A stretch of 64,000 nucleotides of DNA from Moorena producens (GTDB lineage Bacteria; Cyanobacteriota; Cyanobacteriia; Cyanobacteriales; Coleofasciculaceae), in the NCBI RefSeq assembly GCF_965240435.1, contig NZ_CBDEKO010000003.1; one strand, 5' to 3'. The first letter of the stretch is position 1; each line of letters begins with the position of its first letter. The translations under genes were made by a program, and so were the position numbers. Below are positions 3,354 to 37,788 of this stretch, piece after piece. The notes beneath the pieces were generated by a model. That model was not told where the DNA came from. It made no database searches and worked only from the letters and a program-made list of their open reading frames with translations.

Positions 3354-3698
3354 CTACATGTCCATTACATCCAACCCCTCTGATGGCATAACCTTTCCCC
3401 CATAGGACTTAACTACATCTTCAAACAAAGGCATATCATCCTTTGGGATTTCCACTACTACTACCATTTTGGCATATTCCTCTGCTCCTTCTTCCTTGTA
3501 TTCTATTTGCTCGAAGGGCAGGTCTGTTGTCCAATCGTCTAAATTGCTATTAATCATAGGGATGTTGGGCAACAGTTCTTCAACTGGGATAGCGCGAGGT
3601 TTAAAAGGTAGATCGACGCAAAATCGAGGCAGTGCCTGATGAGAAAAATTAACGAAATCCACGGGATTGATAAACACGACTGAAACTTGGACTTTCAT
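3354..3698 (-). CDS. Hypothetical protein
   Basis: 114 aa ORF with no recognisable motifs. Acidic C-terminal half. Confidence 0.35.
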   Translation of the reverse strand: MKVQVSVVFINPVDFVNFSHQALPRFCVDLPFKPRAIPVEELLPNIPMINSNLDDWTTDLPFEQIEYKEEGAEEYAKMVVVVEIPKDDMPLFEDVVKSYGGKVMPSEGLDVMDM

Positions 3699-3984
3699 AA
3701 TCTATGCTATGGTATTCAATCTATTGACACTGACTTGAATTAATACATCATAGCAAAGATGAGCAGTAAGCTTACCCCCGGCTGTTGGCATAGCCTACAG
3801 CCAGGCATAGCACGGGGGCTTTCGCCCAGGCAACAGGCGCGTTGGTTTTCAGTAGCCCTAGCTAACAAACGCGCTTAGATTCCCAATTAATTGAGCCTAA
3901 GGGTTAAGGGCTAAATCTCTAGGTCGGCTTACTCTACGAAAACCCGTAGCTTTTACAACCGATTCAACTCCCGGATGGCTCCAT

Positions 3985-4055
3985 TGAGAATTGAGAATTG
4001 AGAATTGAGAATTGAGAATTTAAAATTGGTATTTCTTGATTCTTGATTCTTCAAC
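3985..4055. repeat. Heptanucleotide tandem repeats (GAGAATT x4, then TTGATTC x3)
   Basis: Seen directly in the divergent intergenic region. Confidence 0.7.
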
Positions 4056-4355
4056 ATTGGTCCGATTTACGTATCACTCGCAGATACTAACCTACTGGCC
4101 TAGCCGTTTTCTCGAGAGCTAAGAGTGCCTTGGCTAATTTCGACCTATATCTATTATACTTTACTGCGCTTAAAACCTTGCTTGCGCTTGATCCCGGCTC
4201 ACTTTGTGACATGGCTTCCGCGTCCTTTGTTTTTTACGTGAGACGGCCTGTGACTTCCAGTAATCCCAAATCTGGGTCTAATACCCCCGTTAACCAAACT
4301 GGTAATATGAACAGTATGTTGTATCGTAATGACTCAATTTAGGAATTGATGCCTG

Positions 4356-4754
4356 GTGAATAAAGATGTATCAAGGGGTTTGGTTTACGAGTTCCAGCCT
4401 CATCAGATTATTTGCTTAGAGCATGACAATACTCGTTTATACGCTGAAGTCATCGAATTTGTGTCATCCCGACAAATGTGTTGGGTGCGTTCTATGGTAT
4501 TGGTGACCTTAGAGGATAGTCAAGAGCGTTTGGCAGCGGAACCCTCTGAACACCTCACTCTTTACGACCTACGCTCTGGACCGGATTTACTTTGGCCAGC
4601 GAGTTTATTACGACTAGCCTTAGATACTGAAGTAATTCCTCTGTTGGTTCGGTTAGATGACCCAGATGTCAATGTAGAAAGTGACCCTGCTGCTCGCCAG
4701 CAACTAAGTTATTTTATCTGTGCAGTTTGGCAAGCTTATCCGGACAAGTTCTAA
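4356..4754 (+). CDS. Hypothetical protein
   Basis: 132 aa ORF with no recognisable family. Confidence 0.35.
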   Translation: MNKDVSRGLVYEFQPHQIICLEHDNTRLYAEVIEFVSSRQMCWVRSMVLVTLEDSQERLAAEPSEHLTLYDLRSGPDLLWPASLLRLALDTEVIPLLVRLDDPDVNVESDPAARQQLSYFICAVWQAYPDKF

Positions 4755-6403: not shown

Positions 6404-9232
6404 ATGGCAATCACTGTAGAGGAAATATTAACACCAGACATCAACAGACCTGCCCGTTACTTAGGTAACGAGTTGGGAGCAGTCCATAAACCTTGGGGAA
6501 AAGCTGAGGTACGCTGGGTATTGACTTATCCAGAAGTATATGAAGTGGGCGCTTCTAACTTAGGCCATATCATCCTCTACAATATATTGAATTCTCAACC
6601 TAGGCAATTATGCGATCGCGCCTATCTACCCGCCCCAGACTTGGCAGCTAAATTACGTTCCACTCAAACCCCTCTGTTTGCTGTAGAGAATCGGCGACCT
6701 CTGACAGATTTTGATATTATTGGCTTTAGCCTTAGCTATGAATTAGGGGCAACCAACATCTTGGAAATGTTGGATTTGGCAGGAATTCCCCTGACCTGGA
6801 AAGACCGTGCTGAGTTTGATATATCGGAAATCCCCCTAATTTTTGCAGGTGGACAAACGGCGACATCGAATCCTGAACCCTATGCTGATTTCTTAGATTT
6901 TGTGGATCTTGGCGATGGGGAAGAATTGTTGCCAGAGATTGGCTTAGTAATCGAAGAGGGCAAAGCAGCTGGCTTAAGTCGAGAAGCGTTACTCCTGGAT
7001 TTGGCTCAGATACCAGGGGTGTATGTCCCCCAATTCTATGATATGACTGAGGATGGCTCAGTTAAACCCAACCGCCCTGATGTGCCGAAGCGGATTTTGC
7101 GGCGTGTGGCTACACCGATGCCTGCCTATGCTATTGGACTAGTACCCTATATCCAAACGGTTCATGACCGACTCAAGATCGAAGTGCGACGGGGCTGTAC
7201 TCGGGGTTGTCGCTTCTGCCAACCTGGGATGCTGACTCGACCAGCGCGGGATGTGGAACCGGAACAAGTGGTGGAAGCTATTGAACAAGGGATGCGTGCT
7301 ACAGGGTATAACGAGTTTTCTCTTCTATCCCTGAGTTGTTCGGATTATCTGGCTCTACCAGCGGTGGGGATGGAAATCAAAAATCGTCTTAAGGATCAGA
7401 ACATTTCCCTGTCCCTACCGAGTCAGCGGGTAGACCGCTTTGATGAGAATATTGCCAATATCCTAGGGGGAAATCGGCAGAGTGGCTTGACCTTTGCCCC
7501 AGAAGCAGGAACTCAGCGGATGCGGGATATTGTTAATAAGGGACTGACTAATGAAGAACTGCTCAGGGGAGTAAAGACGGCATTTGAGCAAGGCTGGGAG
7601 AAAGTCAAGCTCTATTTTATGATTGGTTTGCCTGGTGAAACGGATGTGGATGTGTTGGGGATTGCGGAAACGGTGCGTTGGTTGCAGCAGGAGTGCCGTG
7701 CTAAAGGGAGAAAAACCCTTAAGTTTAACATAACTGTTTCTAATTTTACCCCAAAACCTCACACCCCATTCCAGTGGCATTCCGTATCGACTTCGGAGTT
7801 TAAACGCAAGCAGGAATTGCTCAAACAAGTATTTGGTCAGATCAGGGGGGTGAAGGTTAATTACACCGATGTTCGGATTTCGGCCATGGAAGATTTCGTG
7901 GGACGGGGTGACAGACGCTTAAGTGCGGTGGTGCGCCGTGCTTGGGAATTGGGTGCAGGGATGGATGCCTGGATGGAAAGCTTGGATCGGGCATTTGCTG
8001 CTTGGGAAAATGCGATCGCTTCATCAGGTCTGACCTGGAAATATCGCCAAGTAGAAAGTGGCGAATGGAACGTGATGGCTGGTCTAGAAGAGTTGCAAGT
8101 TGAAAAGTTGTTCGCGAAGCGTGGCCAAAAGGCCAAGGTTGAAAGTTCAGAGCAACCAGCTAACCTACAACCAACTAACCTACAACCAACTAACCTTCAA
8201 CCAACTAACCTTCAACCAACTAACCTTCAACCAACTAACCTTCAACCAACTAACCTTCAACCTTGGCCAAAAGGCCACGCTACGGGAACAACCCTTGATG
8301 CCCTTGATGCCCTTGATGCTCCCTTGCCTTGGGATCATATTGATACGGGAATTGATAAGAATTGGCTCAAGGAAGATTTACAAAAGGCCTTAGATGCAGC
8401 AACAGTACCGGATTGTTCCTTTGATGGGTGTTCTCACTGTGGTGTGTGTGGGATTGATTTTGGTCATAATGTGGTGATTGACCCGCCGCAGATTCCGCAA
8501 TTTGCTGGTCACTTTAAACCCAATACTAATAAGGATCAGCGGCTGCGGGTTTGGTTTGGTAAGTTGGGGGATATGACCTTGTTGGGTCATCTGGATTTGG
8601 CAAGTCTGTTTGAGAGAGCAGTAAGACGGGCTTCACTGCCAATTCGCTATAGTGGGGGGTTTCGGGCTAATGCTCGGATTATGATTGCTAATGCATTGCC
8701 CTTGGGAGCGTCTAGTAGTGGGGAGATTGTGGAGTTTGAGTTAACTGAGAAAATGCCAGTTGAGGAGTTTAGGGAAAGGCTGGTGTCTCAGTTGCCTATA
8801 GAGATTCCGGTGTATGGGGTTGAAGCAGTGGATTTGAAGGAACCTGCTGGAACTCAGCTGTTGGAAAAGGCTGAGTATTTGATTCGAGTTGAGGCAATGT
8901 CATCGGTGTCTTGGGAAGAGTGGCAGGGTTGGATTGAAGCAATTAAGGGTAGTAAGGAAATTTGGTGGGAGCGGTTTACGAAGTCGGGTAAGAAGCAGTT
9001 GGTGAATTTATGCGATCGCTTATTTGACTTCGAGGTGATGGAACCCCAAAAACCCAAAGATGGTGAAGAGGAGGTTGCGGAATCTGGGGTAGTTTTGCGG
9101 TATGTGGGGAGTTGTTTGAATGATGGCACCATGTTGCGACCAGAGCATATTATTTATATGTTGGACCAGGTGGCGCAGCAGGAGTTTCGTTTGTTACATG
9201 TTCATCGCCAACGGTTGATTCTGCGGAATTGA
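6404..9232 (+). CDS. B12-binding radical SAM protein (TIGR03960-like) fused to radical-SAM-associated DUF2344/TIGR03936-like domain
   Basis: 942 aa. Radical SAM motif CTRGCRFCQPG is present. The N-terminal region looks like a B12-binding-type fold. The C-terminal third (DHIDTG...GHLDLASLFERAVRRASLPIRYSGGF) matches the partner protein that is commonly fused to it in cyanobacteria. The linker contains an in-frame repeat insertion (see the repeat feature at 8101-8285). Confidence 0.8.
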   Translation: MAITVEEILTPDINRPARYLGNELGAVHKPWGKAEVRWVLTYPEVYEVGASNLGHIILYNILNSQPRQLCDRAYLPAPDLAAKLRSTQTPLFAVENRRPLTDFDIIGFSLSYELGATNILEMLDLAGIPLTWKDRAEFDISEIPLIFAGGQTATSNPEPYADFLDFVDLGDGEELLPEIGLVIEEGKAAGLSREALLLDLAQIPGVYVPQFYDMTEDGSVKPNRPDVPKRILRRVATPMPAYAIGLVPYIQTVHDRLKIEVRRGCTRGCRFCQPGMLTRPARDVEPEQVVEAIEQGMRATGYNEFSLLSLSCSDYLALPAVGMEIKNRLKDQNISLSLPSQRVDRFDENIANILGGNRQSGLTFAPEAGTQRMRDIVNKGLTNEELLRGVKTAFEQGWEKVKLYFMIGLPGETDVDVLGIAETVRWLQQECRAKGRKTLKFNITVSNFTPKPHTPFQWHSVSTSEFKRKQELLKQVFGQIRGVKVNYTDVRISAMEDFVGRGDRRLSAVVRRAWELGAGMDAWMESLDRAFAAWENAIASSGLTWKYRQVESGEWNVMAGLEELQVEKLFAKRGQKAKVESSEQPANLQPTNLQPTNLQPTNLQPTNLQPTNLQPTNLQPWPKGHATGTTLDALDALDAPLPWDHIDTGIDKNWLKEDLQKALDAATVPDCSFDGCSHCGVCGIDFGHNVVIDPPQIPQFAGHFKPNTNKDQRLRVWFGKLGDMTLLGHLDLASLFERAVRRASLPIRYSGGFRANARIMIANALPLGASSSGEIVEFELTEKMPVEEFRERLVSQLPIEIPVYGVEAVDLKEPAGTQLLEKAEYLIRVEAMSSVSWEEWQGWIEAIKGSKEIWWERFTKSGKKQLVNLCDRLFDFEVMEPQKPKDGEEEVAESGVVLRYVGSCLNDGTMLRPEHIIYMLDQVAQQEFRLLHVHRQRLILRN
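8101..8285. repeat. Composite repeat element inside a CDS: inverted arms GCGTGGCCAAAAGGCCAAGGTTG / CAACCTTGGCCAAAAGGCCACGC flanking 7 x 15-mer (CAACCAACTAACCTT)
   Basis: Seen directly. The arms are perfect inverted repeats apart from the central AAAA. The 15-mer array encodes (PTNLQ)x7 in the reading frame of the radical SAM gene. It is followed by a 3 x CCCTTGATG repeat. Confidence 0.8.
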
Positions 9233-20960: not shown

Positions 20961-21125
20961 GCTGAGTGCAGAGCGTGCTGAGTCTTGAGTGCTGAGTCTT
21001 ATATAGGGGTTCCATGGGTGAGGTACATGCCCATTATCTACCACCTAATACCTAACACCTAATGCTTACTATGACCGAATAAATTGTGTACCTGATTAAG
21101 AGGATATCTGAAAAGTTTTTTGATA

Positions 21126-21235
21126 CTGAATTTTGCCCCCCTAGCCCCCCAACTTTGGGGGGAACAAGAGTCAATTTGCTTCTAAAAGTCCCCCGCCCCC
21201 CTAACCCCCCAATTCTGGGGGGAATTAGCGGATGC
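21126..21235. terminator. Two copies of a CCCCCC..(AAyTyT)..GGGGGG hairpin element between convergent genes
   Basis: gccccccctagccccccaactttggggggaa and cccccgcccccctaaccccccaattctggggggaa. Strong GC hairpins. No T-run, so they may be repeat elements or bidirectional terminators. Confidence 0.35.
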
Positions 21236-21318
21236 TTCGCTTTTTTACAGATGGGGACCAACGGGGGCTTGGATGTAGCAAATGGGACTTCTCAGACAAC
21301 CTCTAAGAAAGAAAACTG

Positions 21319-22446
21319 CTATAATTCCTTTTGCTGATCAAGTTTGGCATAGGGCAGCCAATGGTGCCATAGTGCTAAATAGGCTTTTGCGATCAAGTCC
21401 TGGTAAGGTTGATAAACAACTTTGATGTGATTTAGTCTTTTGGCAAAGGTACTTAAATAGCCCCGTTTCAATAACGAAGCCTGCCACTTGAGATAGGAAG
21501 GCCACTGCTGAGGATTTTGCCTTTGATGGATATAGCCCGGATAGGCTAAAATGCGATCGCGTTTTTCTGGTAAACAGAGTCCTTTCTTCACTAGATAGTC
21601 TAGTAGTTGCTCGGTTTCAGTTTTATTTCTGACATAGCATTCCAGGCCGACTTTGGGTAATACTCTCTGGCATACATCCAAATCAATGACTAGAGAAGAT
21701 GCCACATTAGCCAACTCACAAACCAAGGCTTCAAGTTCATCGGTATCACCTTGCCAACCGATTCGATTTAAATAGGGGATAATTTCGGCTGGCGCTAGAC
21801 CCATACAGACTCGGACAACATCTGAATCCCTGGCCAGCATTGCACCAATGGTAAAGACGTCAGCTCCAGAAGGCAAACTCTCGAAGCAATTAAACAAACA
21901 TTGCTCAACTTCTGGGGATAGTACTCTACCTAATAACAGTTTCAGAGCAGTTTGGCTTACCCATTGATACCCTCCCCCTGGTAAGATGCTGTAGTCAAAG
22001 AAATCAAAGAAAACACTGGGCAATGGAATTGGTGCTGGTTCCGGATTGACGTCAAACTCTAGCCAAATCTGGTCAATTTTATCGAAAAGTGGTGAAGAGG
22101 GGTCTGCCCATTGGGTGCAGAAGTTACAAACCCGCTGCCATATGGGATCAACTTGGAAGGTTTCTGGCAGGAGGTTGATGTTGTTGTTCTCTGCTAAAAT
22201 TCCTCGCCCTTCCTCTCCAATGCACAACAAAATATCTGCTTGGGGAAGACTTGATTGTAAAGGGCACTCAAATCCAAAGCCTTTGGTAATAGTCAGTTGA
22301 CTGGGTAGAGATTGGACAGTTTGGTAGATGTGGTTCCAATCAGAGGAACCAATTAAGGCCGAGGGAATATTTGGGGCAACAATCCTGCTGAGGGTATGGG
22401 ATAGACAGTAGTCATTGGTGGCTGGTGTAGTGCGATCGCAAACCAT
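21319..22446 (-). CDS. Hypothetical protein (last gene downstream of the lanthipeptide precursor)
   Basis: 375 aa with no recognised family. Confidence 0.4.
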   Translation of the reverse strand: MVCDRTTPATNDYCLSHTLSRIVAPNIPSALIGSSDWNHIYQTVQSLPSQLTITKGFGFECPLQSSLPQADILLCIGEEGRGILAENNNINLLPETFQVDPIWQRVCNFCTQWADPSSPLFDKIDQIWLEFDVNPEPAPIPLPSVFFDFFDYSILPGGGYQWVSQTALKLLLGRVLSPEVEQCLFNCFESLPSGADVFTIGAMLARDSDVVRVCMGLAPAEIIPYLNRIGWQGDTDELEALVCELANVASSLVIDLDVCQRVLPKVGLECYVRNKTETEQLLDYLVKKGLCLPEKRDRILAYPGYIHQRQNPQQWPSYLKWQASLLKRGYLSTFAKRLNHIKVVYQPYQDLIAKAYLALWHHWLPYAKLDQQKEL

Positions 22447-22935
22447 TGGCTAGTCAGTTTAAAAGCTTGAAATAAGTGTTTGGTTAACAGGTTTTGAAAT
22501 TAGTTAAGGATTAATCCTTCAGTGACGTTGCTGAACGTTTAACGACTTGGTAATGATAGCTAAGGGCACCATAGGAATTTACCCTGCTGTAACCTTTGAC
22601 TATGATTATGAAATCACCAACACCCTGCTAAAACATCGATTCATTGTCTTGATGCAGTCGCTCATGGGGGGAACCCCCAAGACCGCGCTGCATCGCTCAT
22701 AGAAATTATATGAAAATTATGCTGAGCACCGTTGAGTATGTAGAAGCTATGGTTTTCTAAACTTAACTCTACTTCCGATGGGCATAAACTTAGCTTTTGC
22801 CTTAGCTGTTGAGCTAATCGCTGCATTTGCTACAGGGGCTGACTACTGATAGCTTAAAGCTTATTCCTAAAAGCATAAGATTAGGATTACAAAGCTTGAG
22901 GATTAGTTAATTTATCTTATATAATTACTAATTCC

Positions 22936-23214
<279 letters not shown>

Positions 23215-23477
23215 TTAAGCCACACCATGGTATACAAAGAAACTCTTTGTGTAAACTTGATAAAAATATCTCCGATGAGGGAATAATAAATTGGTATGGC
23301 GCTACGGGCAATGGCATTGGCAACAGGCAAGAGGCAACAGTTTACTAAAAACGCTTTTGCTGCTTTCATCAATGTCCTAACTTTAATGCGTAGTGCTATA
23401 ATAATTATTAGTTTTGATCAAAGCTGGGCAGATTAATGATAGGATGTTTTTTGTAGCCCCTTGAAATCCCGGGTGCT

Positions 23478-24458
23478 TCAATCAGGAGATGAGATTAAGG
23501 GTTGATTCAAGCTTTGAGCTGCCAAAATTTCGTCGATAGACATTACATTAATATCGTAAACCTCACCAAGTTGCTCAAGCAGCAAATCCTCAATAAATTT
23601 CCACTGGTCATCCGGTGTATAGCCACTGATTCTAGAGCGACACAGACAAACTAGTTGTAGCTTAACATTATTGTTTTCTAAAAAGCCAACTAACTCCTTG
23701 ATGCGCTTAACAATTTCAGATTCCGAAACCTTCTTCTGTCCCTGGTAAACATTACTGCTGTAGGGGTTATGCTTGAAAACAAGGTAGTACTTGCCATCTT
23801 CAACTCGGGTTGAAACTCCACTTCCTAATAAAACTCGCAAGTAATGATACCGATCCTGAATAAAAGATTGATATTGTGCTTCGGTAATTTCTATATTTCC
23901 TTGTAGGATTTTGAATTCTTGGTTACAAGAAAAGTAATCCAAATCAATATCTAGAACTACCAATTGATTGTCTGTAAATTCGTCATATACCGTTAAATTA
24001 TGAATCTGAGCGAGTTGATAGTTAGGATCAATCAGCCACTTAAAATAAGTTTTAGCATTGACTTCATTTTTCTGAAACGTTTTTGATATCAAACAGTTAC
24101 CCTCTGAATTAGAGCTATAAATGCAAATTGACTTAGGGGTTGTTGATAAATTTTGATAAGGGTGCTGTAGCCAATAAAATTGCTTAAATAGTCCTTGATA
24201 AATCGCTGGAATTATGAAGTTTTCAATATTCAGTTCATTGTAGGTAAAGTGATATATATCTGTTAGGTTTGTTCTGTCAAGAGCATCAATGGACTTATTT
24301 AAGCGAGGGGATCTAAAGTCCGAATGTTCATCCACATGAAGTAGGATATTATTTGATGCTAGCATTAGCTTTTCCATGACAGCATAATGCCAGATCAAGA
24401 AAGCCTCATTGTGTTCCTCGACAATAAAAACTGGAATCATACTAACTATCTGCTCCAC
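23478..24458 (-). CDS. UPF0489-like protein with arginase/ureohydrolase-like metal-binding motifs
   Basis: 326 aa. Motifs EEHNE (about residue 14-18), HVDEHSD (a D-x-H-x-D pattern like arginase DAHxD), and LDIDLDYFS (a D-x-D pattern like arginase SxDxDxxDP). The spacings between motifs are plausible for the arginase fold. Paralogous to the N-terminus of 24523-26124. Confidence 0.5.
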   Translation of the reverse strand: MEQIVSMIPVFIVEEHNEAFLIWHYAVMEKLMLASNNILLHVDEHSDFRSPRLNKSIDALDRTNLTDIYHFTYNELNIENFIIPAIYQGLFKQFYWLQHPYQNLSTTPKSICIYSSNSEGNCLISKTFQKNEVNAKTYFKWLIDPNYQLAQIHNLTVYDEFTDNQLVVLDIDLDYFSCNQEFKILQGNIEITEAQYQSFIQDRYHYLRVLLGSGVSTRVEDGKYYLVFKHNPYSSNVYQGQKKVSESEIVKRIKELVGFLENNNVKLQLVCLCRSRISGYTPDDQWKFIEDLLLEQLGEVYDINVMSIDEILAAQSLNQPLISSPD

Positions 24459-24522
24459 TAGGTTAGTAGTAGTAGGGTGCCTTAATAATAGACCCTACTA
24501 AGGGCGAGTTACTGGGGGCGAG

Positions 24523-26124
24523 TTACTGGGTAAATCCTGACTCTGAAGAGTCCTCAGTAGGCGGCGGAAATTGATAAGCCACCGTTATGCGCAACTTATT
24601 ACACAGACGGCTTGGCGGACATCCCCGATGGGGAATGGTTCCATCGAAAATGAGAACGCGACCTGGCTTTGGCAAACAGGCATAGATTAAGTCTGCTTTA
24701 CTGGGATCGCGTTCAGAATAAAGCTTTGTCTCTCCATCCCAGTCAGCTCTCCACATCGGATTAATATAACAGATAGCTGTTTGACCAGGATTCTTGATGT
24801 TAGATGAATCCCGATGGATACCATCTCCGAGACCAAATAAATGACCATTAACAACGATGCGAGGGTCTTTAGCCTCGTAGGGAAGTTGCCGCCGGACAAT
24901 TTCTCTAAGCTCGTAGATGCTATCAGGAAAATCTTTTGGTACCCAAAAGGAGGTCAGTAGGTCATCCTCATCTCCACGATTCTGAAACTCCCATCTCAAA
25001 CCATTCAAGTAGTAATTATAGATTTGCTTGAGCAGATACCTAGGGACTAAATCTTCATAGACTGCAATTCTACCGACAGAGGTGTTGAGGCTGATTGTAG
25101 GAGTGTTCGAATTTTCTTTAATCGATTGATCTAATTGATCTAATTGATCTAATTTAGTATGGGTTTCAGTTGCTTGTGTTTGGCTTACTACCAATGCCCT
25201 GGTGCTAAACATCACATCTGGATTTAAGTCTTCTTCAAGCAAAACTTTATCGATCGAGGTAAGTTGGATATCATAAACCTCACCAAGTCTTTTAAGCAAA
25301 TAATCCTCAATCAACTCCCAGTTTTCATCTGCTGCAAATCCACTAATTCTGGAACGACGGAGACAAATAAGCTGTAGCTGAACCTGATTATTTTGCAAAA
25401 AGCCGATTAATTCCTCAATTCTCCTGATAATTTCCGAATCCGATAGATTACGTTTCTTGGTAATTTCATCGTTTTTACTGGAATTAGTGAACACAATGTA
25501 GTATTTTTTATGCTCAACTTTAGTTTCAATTCCACTACCAAATTGACGCCTCAGGTAGTGATTATTATCTTGAAGAAAAGCTTGATATTGTTCTTCAGTG
25601 ATTTCTAATCGTCCTTGAGGGGTGCTGCCGCCAGTATTTTCCAAAAAGTAATCCAAGACAACGTCTAAAACCACCGATTGATTTTCTATAAAATCATCAT
25701 TTACTGTTAGATATTGAATATCAGTCAGGTTATACTTAGGATTGAGTAGCCATTTAAACCGCGTCTGTGCTGTAACGTCATCCTTCTGAAACATCTTGTA
25801 TATTAAACACTTATCACTTACCTCAGACGGATAAATACAGAGAGACTGGGATTTTGTAGGTAACTTTAAATTAGGCTGATGTAACCAGTAAAATTGATTA
25901 AAAATTCCTCGATAAATCGCGGGAATAATAAAATTCGCAATCGTTACTTCCTTGGATGTGAATCGATAGAGCTGGGATAAGCTATTTTTGTCAAGGGAAT
26001 CATCTGAATACTTATCCACATGGAGGAGACTATTTTTTGATGCTGGTATTACCTTTTTATCAACTGCATAATGCCAGATTAAGGAAGCCTCGTTGTGATC
26101 CTCGAACACAAAAACCGGAATCAT
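24523..26124 (-). CDS. Fusion protein: degenerate UPF0489/arginase-like N-domain plus C-terminal 2OG-Fe(II) oxygenase (prolyl-4-hydroxylase-like) domain
   Basis: 533 aa. The N-domain is homologous to 23478-24458 but has HVDKYSD (Tyr where His is expected) and LDVVLDYF. The C-domain has HRD (in GDGIHRDSS), a second His (in TIPHRG) and RIT (in RITVAYQF), which is a typical HxD...H...RxS/T arrangement. Confidence 0.6.
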   Translation of the reverse strand: MIPVFVFEDHNEASLIWHYAVDKKVIPASKNSLLHVDKYSDDSLDKNSLSQLYRFTSKEVTIANFIIPAIYRGIFNQFYWLHQPNLKLPTKSQSLCIYPSEVSDKCLIYKMFQKDDVTAQTRFKWLLNPKYNLTDIQYLTVNDDFIENQSVVLDVVLDYFLENTGGSTPQGRLEITEEQYQAFLQDNNHYLRRQFGSGIETKVEHKKYYIVFTNSSKNDEITKKRNLSDSEIIRRIEELIGFLQNNQVQLQLICLRRSRISGFAADENWELIEDYLLKRLGEVYDIQLTSIDKVLLEEDLNPDVMFSTRALVVSQTQATETHTKLDQLDQLDQSIKENSNTPTISLNTSVGRIAVYEDLVPRYLLKQIYNYYLNGLRWEFQNRGDEDDLLTSFWVPKDFPDSIYELREIVRRQLPYEAKDPRIVVNGHLFGLGDGIHRDSSNIKNPGQTAICYINPMWRADWDGETKLYSERDPSKADLIYACLPKPGRVLIFDGTIPHRGCPPSRLCNKLRITVAYQFPPPTEDSSESGFTQ

Positions 26125-26240
26125 GATTAACCGCTTGTAGTATTATCTCGATCGGATTTTTTATTGGATTGTTAATTAACAACTAACAATTAACAATTTA
26201 CTTGAACCAGAAGTGATTAACCACAGGATATATCAAGCCC

Positions 26241-29200
26241 CTATTGCCACAATAACACTGAGGGCAGCTTACCAGAAGCTAAACGCAACAGCTCGTAACC
26301 AATCCCTGCTGTTCCCTGAAAGAAGCCAGGACTCCAGACAGAACTTGGCAAATTGTCAAACAGTTGATAACTTCCTGTTCGTCTTGCCCTCGCCACCACA
26401 TTTGTTCCTCGTTGGAGGGCGAGTTGCCGTAAATCAGGACGGGAAAATCCTTCGGCTGCAATCAACAGAACCTCAATCCGTCCGAAGTTACCGCAGCACA
26501 AATGGTCAATGCCTTGTAAGCCAAATTGCTGGGTCTTTTGCAACCCTACCTCAATGTCCTGCTGAATATCTGCCGTATCCAGCATGGGCAATCCACCCAG
26601 TCGTCCTAGGGCAATCCCCGGTGCTCCATGACACCAACTCACCATAAAGCCCGGTTGCCCCTTGTCCTGCTGGAATTCGCGGAAATCCGGCCAATTACCT
26701 GCCTTCTCAGAAAAAACACTGCGTTCGTAGGCAATACCTTCTTCTGCTGCTTCACGGTAACGATGGTCTTGGGTGACAGCATACAGGCGCAGCAAAGCAT
26801 AGGCAATTCCAGCCGCACCGTGGGAGAACCCCGTGAGGGGCTGTTCCCTGAGAGTTTGCCATGCCTTGGGAGACCCCTTGATACTCACGCGCTGCTGTAA
26901 TAGATGGTTAGCACAAGCTTGAGCTTTCTCTAGAACGTCTGGATCCTGAGTAGCTTCGTACAAGGGTAACAGACCCAAGATTGCTCCGGCAGCTCCTCCC
27001 ATCACATCCAGTTGTTGATCAGTCGCAATCAATTCAGCAGTAATACTCTTGACAAAAAGCTCAGCATCCGCAAGTAATGCTGTATCCCCCAAGAATTGGC
27101 TGACTTTTGTGAAAGTATAGATGATAGAACTAACTCCGGTAGCTCCTCCAATTCCCAAATTTCTCGCCAGTCTCTGACGAGTATCAGCCAGCTGAGTTAG
27201 CTTTCGTAAACGCTGTAAAGCTTGCAAAGCTAATTCACCAAATTCTTGACGACCCCTTACCCAATCCAATGCTGATAGAAACAGGGCAATTCCACATTTG
27301 CCATCGTAGAGGGAGTTGCCCAGCAGCTGTAGTTGAAACCGTTCAGCTTTAGAAACAAACCCCATGCCAATCCAGTTAACACAGCCATTTGGATCTGGAA
27401 TTGCTTTGGCCTGGATTTCCCTAGCGATCGCATCAGCCTCTTGAATCAACTGATCCGGTGTCAGCGGTGGTAGGGACTGTACTTCCCATGCCCCGGTTTC
27501 TCCAGTTGGTTTTCGTGCCACCCGTGCATAAAGAGCTTGCCGGATCAAACAGAGTTGTTGCCCTAGGTTTGTTTCACTGAATTGCTGTAGCTCGGTGATC
27601 ACCTGCTCATAACTCGGTTGCTTAAAAGCCTGGGGAATAGTTTCTCCGGTAGGTAGGGGTAAAGCCTGACTAGCAGAGTTGCCCTGAAAGTATGGAATAT
27701 CGAGTTGTGCCATTACCTGCAACTCAGCAGCTAAGATCGGCCAAGCTTTTGGTTTCTGCTGATCAACCAGGAACCCTCGACTGATGATGTCTAGCTCAAG
27801 ACTGTAATCAACTCCATCTTGGCAGAATTCAGGGGTCAAGGTTTTCTGCAAAACTGTCCGATACACTTTAGTTGACCGAAAGATAAACCGGATGGGTTGG
27901 TCTTGCAGGGCTGCTAGTGGTCCATCAACAGCAAGCATTGCCTCTCCCTGGCCGATCACGAAGCGATACACCTGCTCAAACCCCTCAACCAGCTGCTCCA
28001 CATAGTCGTTAGGAGACAGGATCTGCTCACCAAGGTAAGACACATTTTTCGACCTGGGTCGAGTGATATTATCGTAGCCCAGATGCATATGATCAGTGTT
28101 GATAGCCTTCCAGCAGCGAGCTTTATGAGCTTTATTAGAGCTAGGTTGGGACTCAATACTTCCCAAACCGCTAATGTCATAGGCAATGCTGCGATCGCTA
28201 CTAAAATCCCATCGGGGCAACAACCCCGTCCGCAAGACAGAATGGTAAAATTGTTGCCCTGCAGTGGATTCCATCTCTTGGGCATCCAGGGAATTGTCTA
28301 TCAGTTTGACTTCCGGGTCAAGGAGAGTTTCTAGATCCACCAACACCAAATGCTCACCACTCGCAATCAGGTTTTGATAGTGGCAGTCTATTCCCCGCAA
28401 AGCATAAAGCCAGCACAATAGCATCCCAGCGCGCTGATAAAACCGTTGCGCCGCTGCTTCATTTTCGCAGGGCTGATGTTCCACATACTCAACCCAGCCA
28501 TACCCACTTTGATTGAGAACTCGTAATACTTTGAATTTGAGCAGTTCTTCGTGTTGATTGCACCAAGCCAACAGGTTATTAAACGCTACTTCCAGCCCTA
28601 AATCTTTGGGTTTGTAGACTACCTTGAGTCCAGAATCAAAGGTGAGTACAAACACTGAGCGTCCTCCATTGTGGGGGTCCGATAACCCTGTCTTAATATC
28701 AGTGACCTGACCGAGACCTTTCAATGATGTTGTTCCTTGCTCCCCTTCAGGGGTTTGGGTTTTACCAAACATTTGATCAATGGCTTCATAGTCCCAGCTC
28801 AACCGTTGCAGTAACTCTACCGTTGCCTCTAGCCAAAGGTTGATACAGGTAGCAACCAATCGCCCCAGCACCGGATAGTTTTCGACAAGGGTAAGGTAAC
28901 CTTCTCGCAAGTGTTGCTCGACAAAGGCATCATAGAAAGTCGTTTGACCATTGCCCTGGAGAGCTGGTAGAAGTAAGTTCAGCAATCTATATCCACCTGG
29001 ACGGGCTTTGGAGAACTCAGCATTCAGTGTCTTAGCACAAAGCGTTGTTACTTGTTGCAGCAGAGTGCGCTCTAGACAACGGTAGGCTGTTTTAGATAAC
29101 AAAGCATTGGCTTGACCTACCACTGGCAAGGCAAAATCCTTGAACCTTTCCTGTAGCTTTGCTCTGGCCACCACCACCACAGGTAGCAGTAGATCTTCAA

Positions 29201-29546
29201 AGGGAAGAGGATTGTCTAGATCAATTGGCAAGTCAGGATAATCCTGAGGCTGAAAGCCTTTAGCGGTTTCCATTACCTGTGCTAGGGTGTTTGCCCACTT
29301 GGGTAGTTGTTCAGCAACTAAACGCACAGTACCTAGGCATGGACGAACTTTGTCTATATCTAATCCATCCCACTGTAAGCGTCGCTGAAACTTGTCCCAG
29401 TTTCCCTGAGCCACCACATTGCACCAGCGCTCAAGTCTTTGTGATACTTGTGCTTCACTGTTGCTATTAAGCTCCGGTACGAATTGCTTGATATCAAGGC
29501 GTTCCCACCAGAAACTAGCTTTAGCAACTATTGATCTACCTAACAA
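26241..29546 (-). CDS. lanM: Class II lanthipeptide synthetase LanM (ProcM-like, CCG zinc-ligand type)
   Basis: 1101 aa. N-terminal LanM dehydratase domain. C-terminal LanC-like cyclase with WCHGAPGIALGRL and HLCCGNFGRIE (CCG rather than CHG, as in ProcM). Confidence 0.85.
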   Translation of the reverse strand: MLGRSIVAKASFWWERLDIKQFVPELNSNSEAQVSQRLERWCNVVAQGNWDKFQRRLQWDGLDIDKVRPCLGTVRLVAEQLPKWANTLAQVMETAKGFQPQDYPDLPIDLDNPLPFEDLLLPVVVVARAKLQERFKDFALPVVGQANALLSKTAYRCLERTLLQQVTTLCAKTLNAEFSKARPGGYRLLNLLLPALQGNGQTTFYDAFVEQHLREGYLTLVENYPVLGRLVATCINLWLEATVELLQRLSWDYEAIDQMFGKTQTPEGEQGTTSLKGLGQVTDIKTGLSDPHNGGRSVFVLTFDSGLKVVYKPKDLGLEVAFNNLLAWCNQHEELLKFKVLRVLNQSGYGWVEYVEHQPCENEAAAQRFYQRAGMLLCWLYALRGIDCHYQNLIASGEHLVLVDLETLLDPEVKLIDNSLDAQEMESTAGQQFYHSVLRTGLLPRWDFSSDRSIAYDISGLGSIESQPSSNKAHKARCWKAINTDHMHLGYDNITRPRSKNVSYLGEQILSPNDYVEQLVEGFEQVYRFVIGQGEAMLAVDGPLAALQDQPIRFIFRSTKVYRTVLQKTLTPEFCQDGVDYSLELDIISRGFLVDQQKPKAWPILAAELQVMAQLDIPYFQGNSASQALPLPTGETIPQAFKQPSYEQVITELQQFSETNLGQQLCLIRQALYARVARKPTGETGAWEVQSLPPLTPDQLIQEADAIAREIQAKAIPDPNGCVNWIGMGFVSKAERFQLQLLGNSLYDGKCGIALFLSALDWVRGRQEFGELALQALQRLRKLTQLADTRQRLARNLGIGGATGVSSIIYTFTKVSQFLGDTALLADAELFVKSITAELIATDQQLDVMGGAAGAILGLLPLYEATQDPDVLEKAQACANHLLQQRVSIKGSPKAWQTLREQPLTGFSHGAAGIAYALLRLYAVTQDHRYREAAEEGIAYERSVFSEKAGNWPDFREFQQDKGQPGFMVSWCHGAPGIALGRLGGLPMLDTADIQQDIEVGLQKTQQFGLQGIDHLCCGNFGRIEVLLIAAEGFSRPDLRQLALQRGTNVVARARRTGSYQLFDNLPSSVWSPGFFQGTAGIGYELLRLASGKLPSVLLWQ

Positions 29547-30409: not shown

Positions 30410-32879
30410 AGCATGCCCCTTATTTGTTTAATCTTAACTAGTAATAATCCTGATTATACTCTAAAAAAAAATATTAGTATTTTTATCAGTTTGGTTAATC
30501 ATTAATGGTTAATAGTTGTTAGTACTTAATGCTATCAAGCCTAATATAAAGTGGCCTCATGCCTAATCGTTAATGTTCCAATCAGCAATCACATCTCTTA
30601 CCCCAGGGGTTTGATGAAGTTGCTACCAACTCAATCAAACAAACGTACTCATAACGAGTTTGGGTTATTTTGGCAGAGCAGAAAAAGAAAGGTTAGGTTA
30701 GTTTTATAGCGACTTCCTTTGCTGTCAGGTTACAAAATAGTTGATTGTTGATTAGGCTTTAGGGATAAACCATGAACTATAGCAATCCGACATAAATCGT
30801 GAGACTTCCTGATCCGAAGCTCCCTTGGTAAAACAATTTTGCTCACAACTGACTTGGGATTTCTATAGGCACAACACTGTATATAAATACCTGAACATAA
30901 ATGCTGTTAACTGTGTTGAAACCCTTAACGTTGCTCAACCCATTGATGGTCTTAGTTTGCCATTACCTATGCCTTTATCCTATCAGTCAACTTTAATTGT
31001 GTCTGACGACTTACTACCTATGAAGGCAACTTAGTAATCTATTTTGATTAGACCCAAACTATGACTACAACTGAGCGTAAAACAGAGAAGAAAATGGAAG
31101 TGCCTAGGACAACTAGTGAAGTTATTCGCATCAAGCCCCAACAGTTTATTCATGTTCTAGACAACAACACTGGTGTTACCCGACTGGAGGTTGGTCCTCA
31201 AACCATTACCCTTCGCGATCACGAGCGGCTGATATTAAAACCTGAACCGATGATTATTGTGCCGCCTCGATATTATTGTGTGGTTGCTAATCCATTACTC
31301 CGGGATGAAGACGGTCAACCCATTGCTGATCAGCATGGTCAAATTCGACTGCGCTACGGTGATCTGGAAATTCGTTTTGCGCAAGATCCCTTTCCCCTTT
31401 ATCCAAACGAGAAACTAGTAGGGGATGTCACGCAACTGGCAGTAGTCGAGACCAATCAAGCACTGCGTCTGAGAGCAATTCGGGATTTTACCGATACGGT
31501 TACGAGAATAGTTGATGGAGAAACCCAGACTGAAACAATTAACCGTTTAGCAGGTGATGAATGGCTGTTTGAAGGACCTGGAACTTATATTCCCCGGGTG
31601 GAGGTTGAAGTAGTTGAGACAGTGACAGCTGAGGTGATTAAACCTAACCAAGCCTTACACCTGTTAGCACGGCAAAATTGCACCGATCGTCAAAGGAATA
31701 GACGTAGAGCAGGTGAAGAATGGCTGGTTAGAGAAGAAGGAGCCTATTTACCTGGTGTAGATGAAGAAGTAATTGGCATTATTAATGCTTACATTTTGAC
31801 AGAACAAAAAGCATTACATCTGAAAGCTAAACGCACCTTTACTGATATTTTTGGTCGTCAGCGTAAAGCTGGAGATGAATGGTTGGTCACCTTTGAAGAT
31901 GCAGAAATTCATATTCCCGATGTTTATGAAGATGTAGTGGGAGAAGTTACGATTACTACCCTCAGCGATCACGAATGGTGTATTGTGCTTGACCCGATTG
32001 ATGAATCTGGTAAACCTCAGCTCGGTATGCGAGAAGTGCGCCAGGGTAGAACATCATTTTTCTTGCATCCTGGTGAGTCCTTAGAGAATGGTATCCAAAA
32101 CATCTATGTTCTCAGTGAGCTAGAAGCACTGTTGCTTCGAGCCAAAGAAGCTTTTAATGAGGGGGAAGGTGACCAGGTCATTACTCATCAACCAGGGGAT
32201 TTGTGGATGATTGCTGGGCCACAAGATTATATTCCCCCTGTGGAAGTGGAAGTGGTTGAGAAGCGTCAAGCCATTCCCCTCGATAAGAATGAAGGTATCT
32301 ATGTGCGTAACATTCAGACTGGTGAACTCAAACTGGTCGGTGGTCCTCAGGCTTATATGCTCACTCCCTATGAGAAGCTTTGGGAAAAAGAACTGCCATC
32401 GGTAGTTGAGGAACTGTTGATGCAAAAAATAGACCCATTGTCTGGGCGTGGTCAGCATTCTCTAGCTGGGGGCGATCAGTCGGAGCGAAAATCAGGAGTG
32501 CGCCAAGGTCTATACCAACGGGATAAGACTAGAGCAGTTGTGTTTCATATTCCTCAAAATGCTGCTGTGCAGCTCCATGATTATAAAAACAGAACTGCAA
32601 GAACTGTATTTGGACCGGACTTGGTGATGCTCGAACCAGATGAAGCCTTTACTGTGCTTTCTTTGTCAGGTAGCAAGCCCAAACGACCTAATGTCATCAA
32701 ATCCTTAGCCTTATTACTCGGTCCTGATTTTATGACCGATATCTTTACCGTAGAGACAGCAGACCATACCAGATTGCAGCTACAACTGTCCTATAACTGG
32801 TACTTTGATGTGGACAGACACGATGAACAGACTGCAGCCAGACTGTTTCAAGTACCTGATTTTGTGGGAGATACTTTTG

Positions 32880-33399
32880 ACACTCCCCGGCCTGAAGGCG
32901 CGGGGATTCCTAGATCAACGAGCCGCCTTAAACCGTCGAGTTCCCATCTATGACGCCGCCAAAAATGGGACAATACTTAACCGAGAATCCGTCAATACCA
33001 AATTCCTAGTTAATTCACGACAGACCCAGAGGGCAGTTCTCCTTAGGCGTTTAACTACTTATTGGAAGTGCCTTATTAAGTCCGTTTCCCTTCCTTTCGT
33101 TTGGTTTCGGTGTGCCCCACCGTACCGTTTTCTCGTCCATAGTGATTCTTCTGGGTTCACACACCAACTGTTAATTGATGATTGGGTTTTTAAAGAGGAC
33201 TTTCCCTTCCCTCTAGACATTACTACTTTAAGGTCGATAAGTTACGGGTCTCTCTCCCGGCTCAGCCTACGGTTTTTCAGCCTGTATGTATCTTGATTAT
33301 ACGATAAATATTCGTGTGTGTCCATAGTTGCTCTTTTTTTTATAGGTTCCTAATAGAAAGCCGTCCTATAAGGACGGGGCTTTAAACCCAAATCTTTTG
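32880..33399 (+). mobile_element. 520-bp non-coding insertion in MVP gene, flanked by CTTTTG direct repeats
   Basis: No coding potential in the MVP frame. Hairpin near the 5' end (CCCCGG..CGCGGGG) and near the 3' end (CCGTCCTATAAGGACGG). The 6-bp direct repeat CTTTTG occurs at 32874-32879 and 33394-33399. Removal restores the frame (520 mod 3 = 1). Confidence 0.45.
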
Positions 33400-33837
33400 G
33401 TAAAGCGATCGCATCCCGAGTGCGGGGTGCTGTAGCAGGGGAAAAATTTGATGAATTTCACCGCAATTCAGCCCGGATTATCCGACTGGCGGTGTTTGGC
33501 ACTGATCAAGAAGGTCATATTCGAGATGAATTTCGTTTCCGAGCCAATAACCTAGTAATTACCAATATTGACATTCAGTCAGTGGAGCCAGTGGATGAAG
33601 AAACCTTAAGGAGCTTGCAAAAGTCAGTGCAGCTAGCGATTCAAATTACCACTGATGCTCAAGAAGCTGCTGCACGCCAAGATGCAGAACGGATTGAGCA
33701 AGAAGCGAAAGCCAGGTTGGAAAGGCAAGTAATTTTGGATCAAAGTGGAGCAGAAGCAGAACGCAAAAAACTTCTAGAATTACAGGCAGAAAATATAGCC
33801 ATTGAGTCTACAGGTCAAGCAACAGCAGAAGCAAGAG

Positions 33838-34101
33838 GTGACATACTCCCACATTGAATCGAAGATTACAGTGTGGGCTTCTTACCAACTCCACCCAACG
33901 GTTCGGATACTCGGTAAGCTTTATTAACGATACAGGATGCCCCTCCGCACCGGAACAATACAATAAGTTCTATTTTTTAATTAGTAGGTGGCGGTTAGCT
34001 CTTATTTGGTTTTCCCTACTATATCTAGTATAAACGATTTTTATCCTGTCCGCAATTCATCTGACACTCATGCTGCGCATGTTCGTTGTGAGGCATAAGA
34101 G
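33838..34101 (+). mobile_element. 264-bp non-coding insertion in MVP gene, flanked by AAGAG direct repeats
   Basis: Direct repeat AAGAG at 33833-33837 and 34097-34101. Hairpins CCCACA..TGTGGG near the 5' end and CATGC-TGC-GCATG near the 3' end. Removal restores the MVP frame (264 is divisible by 3). Confidence 0.45.
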
Positions 34102-34596
34102 CGGATGAAGCTAAGGCTGAAGCGGCTCAGATTCAAGGACAATTAGCAGTTAACTTGGCTCAGCAAGAAGCCGAGGCGGCTCGGATTCGCAATCAAATCG
34201 AGTTAGCTCAACTCAAAGCACGTCAGGAAGCTGAATTAGCCCATCAACAAGCCTTTAATAACCTAGAGATTGCCAAAGCTGAGCGTATGGCTCACATTAA
34301 GAGTGAAGAATACCGACAGAAAGTAGAAGCAATTGGTCCTCAAACCATTCAAGCGATCGCACAAGCAGGTCCGGAAATGCAGGCAAGACTTCTAGAAGCA
34401 CTTGGTATCCAGAGTGTTTTGATTACCGATGGCAAAAATCCCATCAATCTATTTGGTGCAGCTAATGGTCTGATTACTCCCCCAACTTCTAACTAAGTGC
34501 ATCTGTGTCTGCTGCGCGCTGTGTCTGCTGCGTGCTGGCACGGCTTCCCTTATACACAGATACACCGATAACCCAACCCTATCTTACCGGTCTATC

Positions 34597-37230: not shown

Positions 37231-37352
37231 AAGACTATGCGATTAGCCCGAAGGGCGTTGGCTAGCGATGAAGCGTTCGCGAAGCGTGGCCAAAGGCCTC
37301 AGCTTCCGCGCTTATGCGATTAGCCCGAAGGGCGTTGGCTAGCGAACGCATA
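37231..37352. repeat. Two copies of the 37-nt dispersed repeat (ATGCGATTAGCCCGAAGGGCGTTGGCTAGCGA) flanking a GCGAAGCGTGGCCAAAGGCC element
   Basis: Seen directly. The same families occur at 12053 and 8101/14897/61008. Confidence 0.7.
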
Positions 37353-37788
37353 CGGGCGAGAATTGCATCATTTGATCTCCAAATCCCCCGATTTCACATA
37401 AATCCATACAGCAAGCAAATTTTTGTCAAACTAATTCTCAAACTAACTAGACACCTTTAGTAAAATACTATATACTATATAATAGTGGCATTATGACAGT
37501 TGCTTCATCAGCAACTGATTAGCTGCGTGTGCTGTGGGCTGAGAAGTAGGTTCGAGGCAAGACAATATACACAGCATATCATGTGTTTGTTTTGGCATCA
37601 GGGCTAAAGTAGGTCAAAGACAGTTAGGTTTAAACAACTCCCATCAGTTCTTGGGTCTACTTTGGGTCAATAAGTGCTTACACTTTCGTGGATCAAGGGA
37701 TACTGAGTGATTAACAACTTAAGTCCCAGCGAAGTCAGGCGAGTTTAATAGCCTTTTCTGACCAGTAAACGCAATTGAACGAGAATCT

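Follow-up and report, generated by a model that had tools for sequence, protein, structure and literature searches.

The shell of the eukaryotic vault consists of major vault protein (MVP), and the MVPs of cyanobacteria are the only close prokaryotic relatives of that shell; they bear on the origin and function of vaults and have been in the literature since 2013. In that year, Daly et al. described MVPs of Lyngbya majuscula and other Oscillatoriales, including F4Y3B4 at 879 aa and 54% identity, and discussed horizontal transfer (PMC3762200). Cyanobacterial MVPs were also treated by Sokolskyi in 2019 (bioRxiv 10.1101/872010) and are covered by a 2023 preprint on phage MVPs, and a preprint of 2026 reports that the shoulder of human MVP has a pocket binding ADP-ribose/NAD. 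We analysed a 64,000-nucleotide stretch of DNA from Moorena producens (contig NZ_CBDEKO010000003.1), called the window throughout, which encodes at 31061-34496 on the plus strand a full-length MVP homologue carrying all of the Pfam vault domains, its reading frame split by two inserts. Strain 3L of Lyngbya majuscula was later given the name Moorea producens. MVP in Moorena is already known, and the copy described here is a recently disrupted allele, and the mobile elements in it are new representatives of a known type. We consider it very likely that two transposase-less elements of the IS200/IS605 family disrupt the gene and that the allele is inactive.

Elements of this kind were defined by Dyall-Smith and colleagues as palindrome-associated transposable elements (PATEs), which have no terminal inverted repeats (TIRs), do not duplicate their target, carry near-terminal palindromes, are too short to encode a transposase and derive from IS1341-type elements (PMC3119063). 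We assign both inserts to the PATEs because their features match this published definition.

Results

Identity of the interrupted gene

The plus-strand open reading frame (ORF) that opens at 31061 ends at a stop at 32953 after 630 aa, and two further plus-strand ORFs, at 33420-33857 and 34155-34496, carry on the same protein family. When the two inserts, of 523 and 273 bp, are taken out, the three coding segments (Table 1) join into 2640 nt, or 879 codons and a stop, with zero internal stops. The window holds no uninterrupted, expressible MVP gene; the frame is intact only after both inserts have been removed in silico. The first segment takes in the vault repeat domains at the N-terminus as well as the first half of the shoulder; it is collinear with positions 10001-11816 of L001, a contig that carries an intact orthologue. 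The second has 98.6% nucleotide identity to L001 11817-12254 and aligns to human MVP, and the third is collinear with L001 12255-12640.

Table 1. Coding segments of the Moorena MVP gene and the two inserts, in window coordinates
Feature	Position	Strand	Description
MVP coding segment 1	31061..32876	+	From ATG; codons 1-605 and first base of codon 606
Insert 1	32877..33399	-	Very probable 523-bp non-autonomous IS200/IS605-family element (PATE)
MVP coding segment 2	33400..33837	+	438 nt; second half of shoulder, first part of cap-helix
Insert 2	33838..34110	-	Probable 273-bp non-autonomous IS200/IS605-like element (PATE)
MVP coding segment 3	34111..34496	+	386 nt including TAA stop; rest of cap-helix, cap-ring/C-terminus

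The joined translation scores far above the curated cut-off against five Pfam families: Vault (E = 3e-68, four stretches), Vault_2 (E = 3.9e-34, two stretches), Vault_3 (E = 2.9e-32, one stretch), Vault_4 (E = 7.3e-16, one stretch) and MVP_shoulder (E = 2.5e-50, one stretch). The four Vault families together mark out the array of N-terminal repeat domains (R1-R9). A search of the PDB aligned human and rat MVP chains with the query in a single stretch, residues 18-877 against chain positions 4-849 (E = 5e-293, 978 bits). At over half of the aligned positions, the residue is the same as in human MVP, across repeat domains, shoulder, cap-helix and C-terminus, and the succession of shoulder, long cap-helix and C-terminal cap-ring region is collinear with the solved MVPs. 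The first-pass annotation of this DNA had proposed a genuine, collinear, full-length MVP homologue at this locus, and the proposal stands: all five peptides that it quoted lie in frame on the plus strand. It had also named what would speak against it, namely a similarity confined to low-complexity stretches or to part of the protein; the single alignment runs almost from end to end, lies far beyond chance and is not a low-complexity match. Judged by its sequence, the locus represents the cyanobacterial MVP gene in Moorena, an orthologue with 879 codons, and its intact product is predicted to contain all domains of the protein that forms the eukaryotic vault shell: N-terminal repeats, shoulder, cap-helix and C-terminal end. 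By analogy with that protein, we suggest that the intact product would self-assemble into a vault-like shell; a 39-fold symmetric half-vault, or 78-mer shell, of cyanobacterial MVP is putative.

Intact orthologues and the boundaries of the inserts

Syntenic MVP orthologues in other Moorena assemblies are intact and have 95-98% nucleotide identity to the window copy. The closest database protein, P0001 (contigs L001 and L002), is intact, 879 aa long and 97% identical; P0119, from Moorea sp. SIO3I7 (contig L003), is a partial protein that is 99% identical over 73% of the query. All three contigs are syntenic with the window wherever they overlap it and are uninterrupted at the insert sites that they cover, and a base-level comparison with these empty sites set the insert boundaries. 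At site 1, the empty sequence of all three contigs reads ...GGAGATACTT joined directly to GTAAAGCGATCGC... (junction ACTT/GTAAAG). In the window, the same ...ACTT and GTAAAG... stand apart by 523 bp that begin with TTGACACTCCCC and end with AAATCTTTTG, the junction being unambiguous and 0 bp duplicated. At site 2, the empty sequence reads ...GCAAGAG joined to CTAAGGCTGAAG... (CAAGAG/CTAAGG), and insert 2 is missing from L001 and L002. Neither insert is flanked by a target-site duplication (TSD) when set against these empty sites, three for insert 1 and two for insert 2. An 883-aa reconstruction offered at first pass, with junctions at the chance 5-6 nt repeats CTTTTG and AAGAG, was overturned by this comparison, its four extra residues having come from misplaced junctions.

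The insertions appear to be young. Contig L003 has 97.9% nucleotide identity to the window in the N-terminal segment and 99.2% just past site 1, and it runs through site 1 without insert 1; therefore, the insertion of insert 1 must have been very recent. Between the restored MVP gene and that of L001, 51 codons differ synonymously and 18 non-synonymously, and we therefore conclude that MVP was under purifying selection until recently.

Consequence for the gene

Since the 523 nt of insert 1 are not a multiple of three, the reading frame shifts and meets a stop 25 codons into the insert. The truncated product would comprise 605 MVP residues followed by 25 unrelated ones; its MVP part would end half-way through the shoulder, with neither cap-helix nor C-terminal region. 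In the solved eukaryotic vaults, such as that of rat, the missing parts are those that hold the half-shell together. With them lost, the allele is most likely null. Once insert 1 had disrupted MVP, insert 2 would have been selectively neutral, and a gene with two insertions is consistent with selection having relaxed once the first was in place.

The first insert

Read on the minus strand, insert 1 lies 3' of a TTAC target at 33403-33400. Its left end (LE) starts at 33399 and has a subterminal hairpin at 33357-33383 (single-stranded DNA fold, z = -3.5), and its right end (RE), which finishes with ...GGGGAGTGTCAA at 32877, has a GC-rich 9-bp hairpin at 32885-32905 that is kept in all family members. 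To look for relatives, we used a 20-mer of insert 1 to scan a set in which each species has a single genome; 21 loci were returned, mostly in filamentous cyanobacteria. In every copy, the RE consists of a GC-rich hairpin followed by AGTGTCAA, and it ends in GTCAA in all alignments. In eight of nine alignments, the target on the 5' side of the LE is either TTAC or TTAT. Read in tnpB sense, it is TTAC in the window, L012 and L023, TTAT in L007, L013, L015 and L024, and TTCC in L019. This combination of a TTAC target and an RE ending in TCAA, with subterminal hairpins and with neither TIRs nor a TSD, is the IS608, or IS200/IS605, pattern.

Full-length copies of insert 1, 97.7-97.9% identical to it and with unrelated flanks, are present in Moorena sp. 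SS36440bin_2 (L012) and M. bouillonii PNG (L019), and a third, partial copy runs off a contig end (L008). The same ends are also found around larger elements. In five loci from Microcoleus and other Oscillatoriales (L007, L013, L015, L023 and L024), about 43 nt of the LE and 33-47 nt of the RE bracket elements of 1.35-1.8 kb with a single long ORF. We translated three of these ORFs (L013, L023 and L024; 471-478 aa). All three have the Pfam domains OrfB_IS605 and Cas12f1-like_TNB, and two have HTH_OrfB_IS605 as well; the ORF product is therefore TnpB. The tnpB strand of these relatives corresponds to the minus strand of the window and is thus antisense to MVP. In all, tnpB adjoins an insert 1-type RE in nine loci, one of them a metagenome-assembled genome (MAG) of Ktedonobacteraceae.

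The RE of this family was also seen in Chloroflexota MAGs (Ktedonobacterales/Ktedonobacteraceae): L018 and L022 match it at 84.6% over 52 nt, and L004 and L016 contain 22 nt of it exactly. The RE in L018 adjoins a tnpB that is 55.6% identical to a Microcoleus tnpB. These matches suggest that the IS family of insert 1 is shared across phyla. In the Microcoleus MAG L013, at 2430-2679, two tandem insert 1-type REs lie 217 bp apart, downstream of one tnpB.

The second insert

Insert 2 shows no sequence similarity to insert 1 beyond chance. On the minus strand, its target is TTAG at 34114-34111, its LE starts at 34110, and its RE, with a hairpin at 33848-33877, ends in ...GGGAGTATGTCAC at 33838. 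An exact 20-mer of insert 2 had no matches in the metagenome collection, and a 59-aa ORF inside it has no exact match on record in the gene collection. Six-frame translation of the insert against the protein database found one protein, P0121 of Moorena sp. SIO4G3, in which a related element encodes the C-terminal tail. That element is 304 bp long (L055 5497-5800; JAAHIG010000096.1) and interrupts a haemagglutinin-like repeat gene, the break falling precisely between repeat codons (GNGGN/LTIET). Insert 2 and the L055 element have in common, two out of two, the TTAG target directly before the LE and the RE end GGAGTATGTCAC (GTCAC). A global alignment finds the RE-proximal part well conserved and the LE side only partly similar, and BLAST aligns 121 nt at 92.6% identity. 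The annotation of L055 treats the two parts of the split gene, with its GNGGNLTIDT repeats, as distinct proteins (P0121 and the ORF that follows), and a tnpB-like stretch lies upstream of the gene in an uncalled gap at 3579-4376.

The loop of the insert 2 RE hairpin, TAATCTTYGATT, recurs in a second type of RE, named here after contig L006; the stems differ, in the L055 relative as well as in the L006 type, and still pair. Beside the 3' end of tnpB in L053 stands an RE of this L006 type, and it is through this related RE that insert 2 may be linked, indirectly, to TnpB elements. A search of the metagenome collection with a degenerate RE pattern found the L006-type family and not insert 2 itself. 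The L006-type PATE is about 380 bp long, highly multicopy in a Hot Lake Phormidium metagenome, and has an RE ending in ...CCCCCGTTATAATCTTTGATTTAACGGCGGGAGTGTCAA. Its loci are L025-L054 (Hot Lake Oscillatoriales and other metagenome contigs), L006 1-381 and L039 ~6770-7200. Most copies stand at contig or locus ends, as expected of a repeat that breaks assemblies; the L039 copy is non-coding and lies between dnaB and an FKBP-type gene. We suggest that insert 2 represents a second, distinct PATE family, the evidence for it being thinner than for insert 1.

Class of the inserts

Comparison of their termini gave chance-level scores for TIRs in both inserts. Subterminal hairpins are found at both ends of each, that at the LE of insert 2 without significance. 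Ends are shared with TnpB-encoding elements, directly by insert 1 and indirectly by insert 2, and both families insert 3' of a fixed tetranucleotide and finish in a fixed RE terminal oligonucleotide. The window contains no other copies of either insert, no tnpB remnant within or outside the inserts (tblastn with TnpB), and no transposases among the 20 ORFs scanned.

An interruption of this sort could also be a self-splicing intron (group I, group II or IStron-like) that is removed from the mRNA, so that translation would still give full-length MVP. It so happens that a U precedes insert 1 and that its last base is G, as in group I introns; insert 2 begins with GTGAC, and the first-pass annotation had suspected splice-type junctions on sequence alone. 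IStrons and group I and II introns are likewise short non-coding interruptions of conserved ORFs that are precisely absent from close relatives. However, both inserts differ from them in having no ribozyme signature or structure and in running antisense to the host gene. Rfam 15 gave no match at gathering score in the whole window, none that was meaningful at E <= 10 in 32780-34200 and none in five related loci; all that these searches returned was noise, snoM1 and bxd_1 far below threshold. RNA folds of both inserts on both strands are no better than shuffles (z = -0.07 to -1.95). The antisense orientation follows from the polarity of the TnpB-bearing relatives, copies of the inserts are found at unrelated, non-homologous sites, and orthologues that are 95-98% identical do without them. 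We consider splicing highly improbable and read both supposed splice junctions as transposon insertion sites. Spliceosomal-type GT...AG boundaries were discarded as well, being possible for insert 2, impossible for insert 1, and accompanied by close relatives without both inserts.

Nor do we give much credence to an artefact of assembly or sequencing, in which repeats were misplaced into a gene that is in reality intact. Repeats are a frequent cause of broken or confused assemblies, contig ends in metagenomes carry many of the related right ends, and the broken 630-aa ORF of the window has no record in the gene collection. However, both inserts have base-exact boundaries at the targets of their families (TTAC and TTAG) and complete ends, which a misassembly would not produce twice, and an analogous interrupted gene occurs in an independent assembly (L055). 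Such an artefact is extremely unlikely.

Distribution and neighbourhood of cyanobacterial MVP genes

The database comparison covers the best 120 matches to the joined MVP protein, which are 75-97% identical to it, apart from the one partial protein at 99% over 73% of the query. Among them are proteins named from many cyanobacterial genera, most of them filamentous; named sources include Symploca, Allocoleopsis, Aerosakkonema, Microseira, Planktothricoides, Oxynema, Nostoc, Tumidithrix, Limnofasciculus, Spirulina and others. The earlier view that bacterial copies of MVP are rare does not hold against this list. Cyanobacterial MVPs are usually named 'colicin uptake protein' at NCBI and 'major vault protein' at JGI.

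In the window, the MVP gene sits between a LanM lanthipeptide cluster and the ribosomal-protein operon, and the gene order in L001 is LanM, a pentapeptide-repeat protein, MVP, a 73-aa ORF, a Kef-type antiporter and the ribosomal-protein operon. Gene neighbourhoods compared across four other cyanobacterial genera contain no conserved neighbours of MVP. The statement made at first pass that no vPARP or TEP1 partners are nearby agrees with what we see: no PARP, TROVE or NACHT-WD40 genes occur among the scanned window ORFs or in the four other neighbourhoods, and Rfam finds no vault RNA match at gathering score in the whole window.

Other features of the window

The lanthipeptide-type cluster, of class II, occupies 21319-29546 on the minus strand, directly upstream of MVP. 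Among its genes are LanM (26241-29546, 1101 aa) and two with UPF0489, in one case together with a 2OG-Fe(II) oxygenase domain; in the syntenic cluster of L001, a Nif11-family precursor is called. Upstream of the cluster are a Trp-halogenase-like gene, a DUF6445 gene and an amine oxidase/squalene-cyclase-like gene. At ~21103-21305, the window has a MITE of ~200 bp with imperfect TIRs (GAGGATATCTGAAAAGT... and ...ACTTCTCAGACAACCTC), TSD-like TAAGAG/TAAGA and internal C6/G6 hairpins. It is missing from the syntenic L001 and belongs to another class of element than the two MVP inserts. Two smaller differences from L001 are intergenic: 176 bp with a small hairpin repeat, GATGCAGTCGCTCATGGGGGGAACCCCCAAGACCGCGCTGCATC, take the place of 19 bp at 22521-22696, and a motif (GATTAGCCCGAAGGGCGTTGGCTAGCGA...) is locally duplicated at 37269-37364, downstream of the Kef-type antiporter gene. 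A scan for tRNA and tmRNA genes found none.

Discussion

We suggest that two PATEs entered the Moorena MVP gene antisense to it, insert 1 in the shoulder after nt 1816 and insert 2 in the cap-helix after nt 2254. Such elements would move as single-stranded DNA; a Y1 (HUH) TnpA supplied in trans would recognise the subterminal hairpins and insert the element on the 3' side of a short, unduplicated target (TTAC in the case of insert 1, TTAG in that of insert 2). Mobilisation by Y1 TnpA in trans is proposed here by analogy with the IS200/IS605 family. As evidence on a replication-strand bias of the insertions, the GC skew of the window is of no use, being both too weak and too strongly confounded with the orientation of genes.

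Several observations weigh against this interpretation. No tnpA (Y1 transposase) was found in the window or in the fetched loci, and the relatives carry tnpB only. The interiors of the inserts have no similarity to the TnpB-bearing elements beyond the terminal 33-55 nt; therefore, they are not simple deletion derivatives of the elements that we found. Insert 1 is low-copy, with one or two exact RE matches per Moorena genome. For insert 2, the case is harder still: only one relative is known, the LE palindrome is short, the LE region folds no better than shuffles (z = +0.3), and the junction at site 2 has a 2-bp (AG) positional ambiguity, or microhomology. That the allele is most likely non-functional is a conclusion drawn from the frameshift. 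As regards the vault itself, no cyanobacterial MVP is evident among the solved structures, the best PDB score being only 978 bits, and our literature search found no experimental paper on bacterial vault particles.

The inserts might instead form a programmed or reversible switch, whose precise excision, by TnpA or during differentiation, turns vault production on, in the manner of the heterocyst excision elements in nifD, fdxN and hupL. Excision of IS200/IS605 elements is seamless, removal of both inserts gives a perfect MVP frame, and cyanobacteria do use developmental DNA excision. Given seamless excision and a perfect restored frame, reversion is possible in principle, and precise excision restoring MVP is a possibility that we infer for this allele. 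A conserved regulatory arrangement is a different matter. Close relatives carry an uninterrupted MVP, which argues that the insertions are strain-specific and recent; no recombinase is encoded here, whereas heterocyst excision elements are large and encode their own; and Moorena is not known to form heterocysts. We think that a programmed switch is very unlikely.

A broader speculation, to which we accord a small probability, is that the PATEs serve as a TnpA-excisable ON/OFF vault switch or else are kept in the polyploid chromosome set by a resident TnpB. Under the second option, a guide RNA made from the RE would extend into the flanking sequence, and the uninterrupted MVP allele (TTAC, then AAGTATCTCCCACAAA...) would be cut by TnpB; if true, this would amount to a gene-drive-like spread among chromosome copies. 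Of the RE-proximal sequence of TnpB elements, the PATEs retain at most 55 nt, which speaks against a complete scaffold for a guide RNA.

Under the interpretation that we prefer, insertion of two PATEs, the three ORF fragments should be annotated as one gene with two probable mobile elements, not as introns and not as separate genes. Two cyanobacterial IS200/IS605-type PATE families can be defined, TTAC/TTAT...GTCAA and TTAG...GTCAC, and their ends and targets could be used to annotate other Moorena and Oscillatoriales genomes. Moreover, the allele would be a natural MVP knock-out in a Moorena strain, which, if it is in culture, could be compared with intact-gene relatives for a vault phenotype.

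Among known systems, the eukaryotic MVP (human and rat; PDB 4V60, 4HL8, 7PKZ, 11DR and others) has the same Pfam set as the Moorena protein and is collinear with it, with cap-helix and C-terminus aligning. The eukaryotic vault differs in its host, and the Moorena gene has no vPARP/PARP4, TEP1 or vault RNA nearby and is interrupted. Closer at hand, the Moorena MVP falls in the same orthologous group as F4Y3B4 of Lyngbya majuscula, K9WB38 of Allocoleopsis franciscana (Microcoleus sp. PCC 7113) and K9TKX8 of Oscillatoria acuminata, and its pre-insertion length of 879 aa is that of the published F4Y3B4. Like other cyanobacterial MVP genes, it stands alone with variable neighbours; it differs from them in its two PATE insertions and is probably a pseudogene. 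The inserts in turn resemble PATEs, IS1341-type elements and IS608 in having neither TIRs nor a TSD, in their subterminal hairpins and in having no transposase coding capacity. Insert 1 is like IS608 also in its TTAC target (TTAC/TTAT in the family) and its RE ending in TCAA, whereas the family of insert 2, with its TTAG target and RE ending in GTCAC, departs from the IS608 pattern. PATEs were defined in haloarchaea, and the inserts described here represent cyanobacterial families without an Rfam match.

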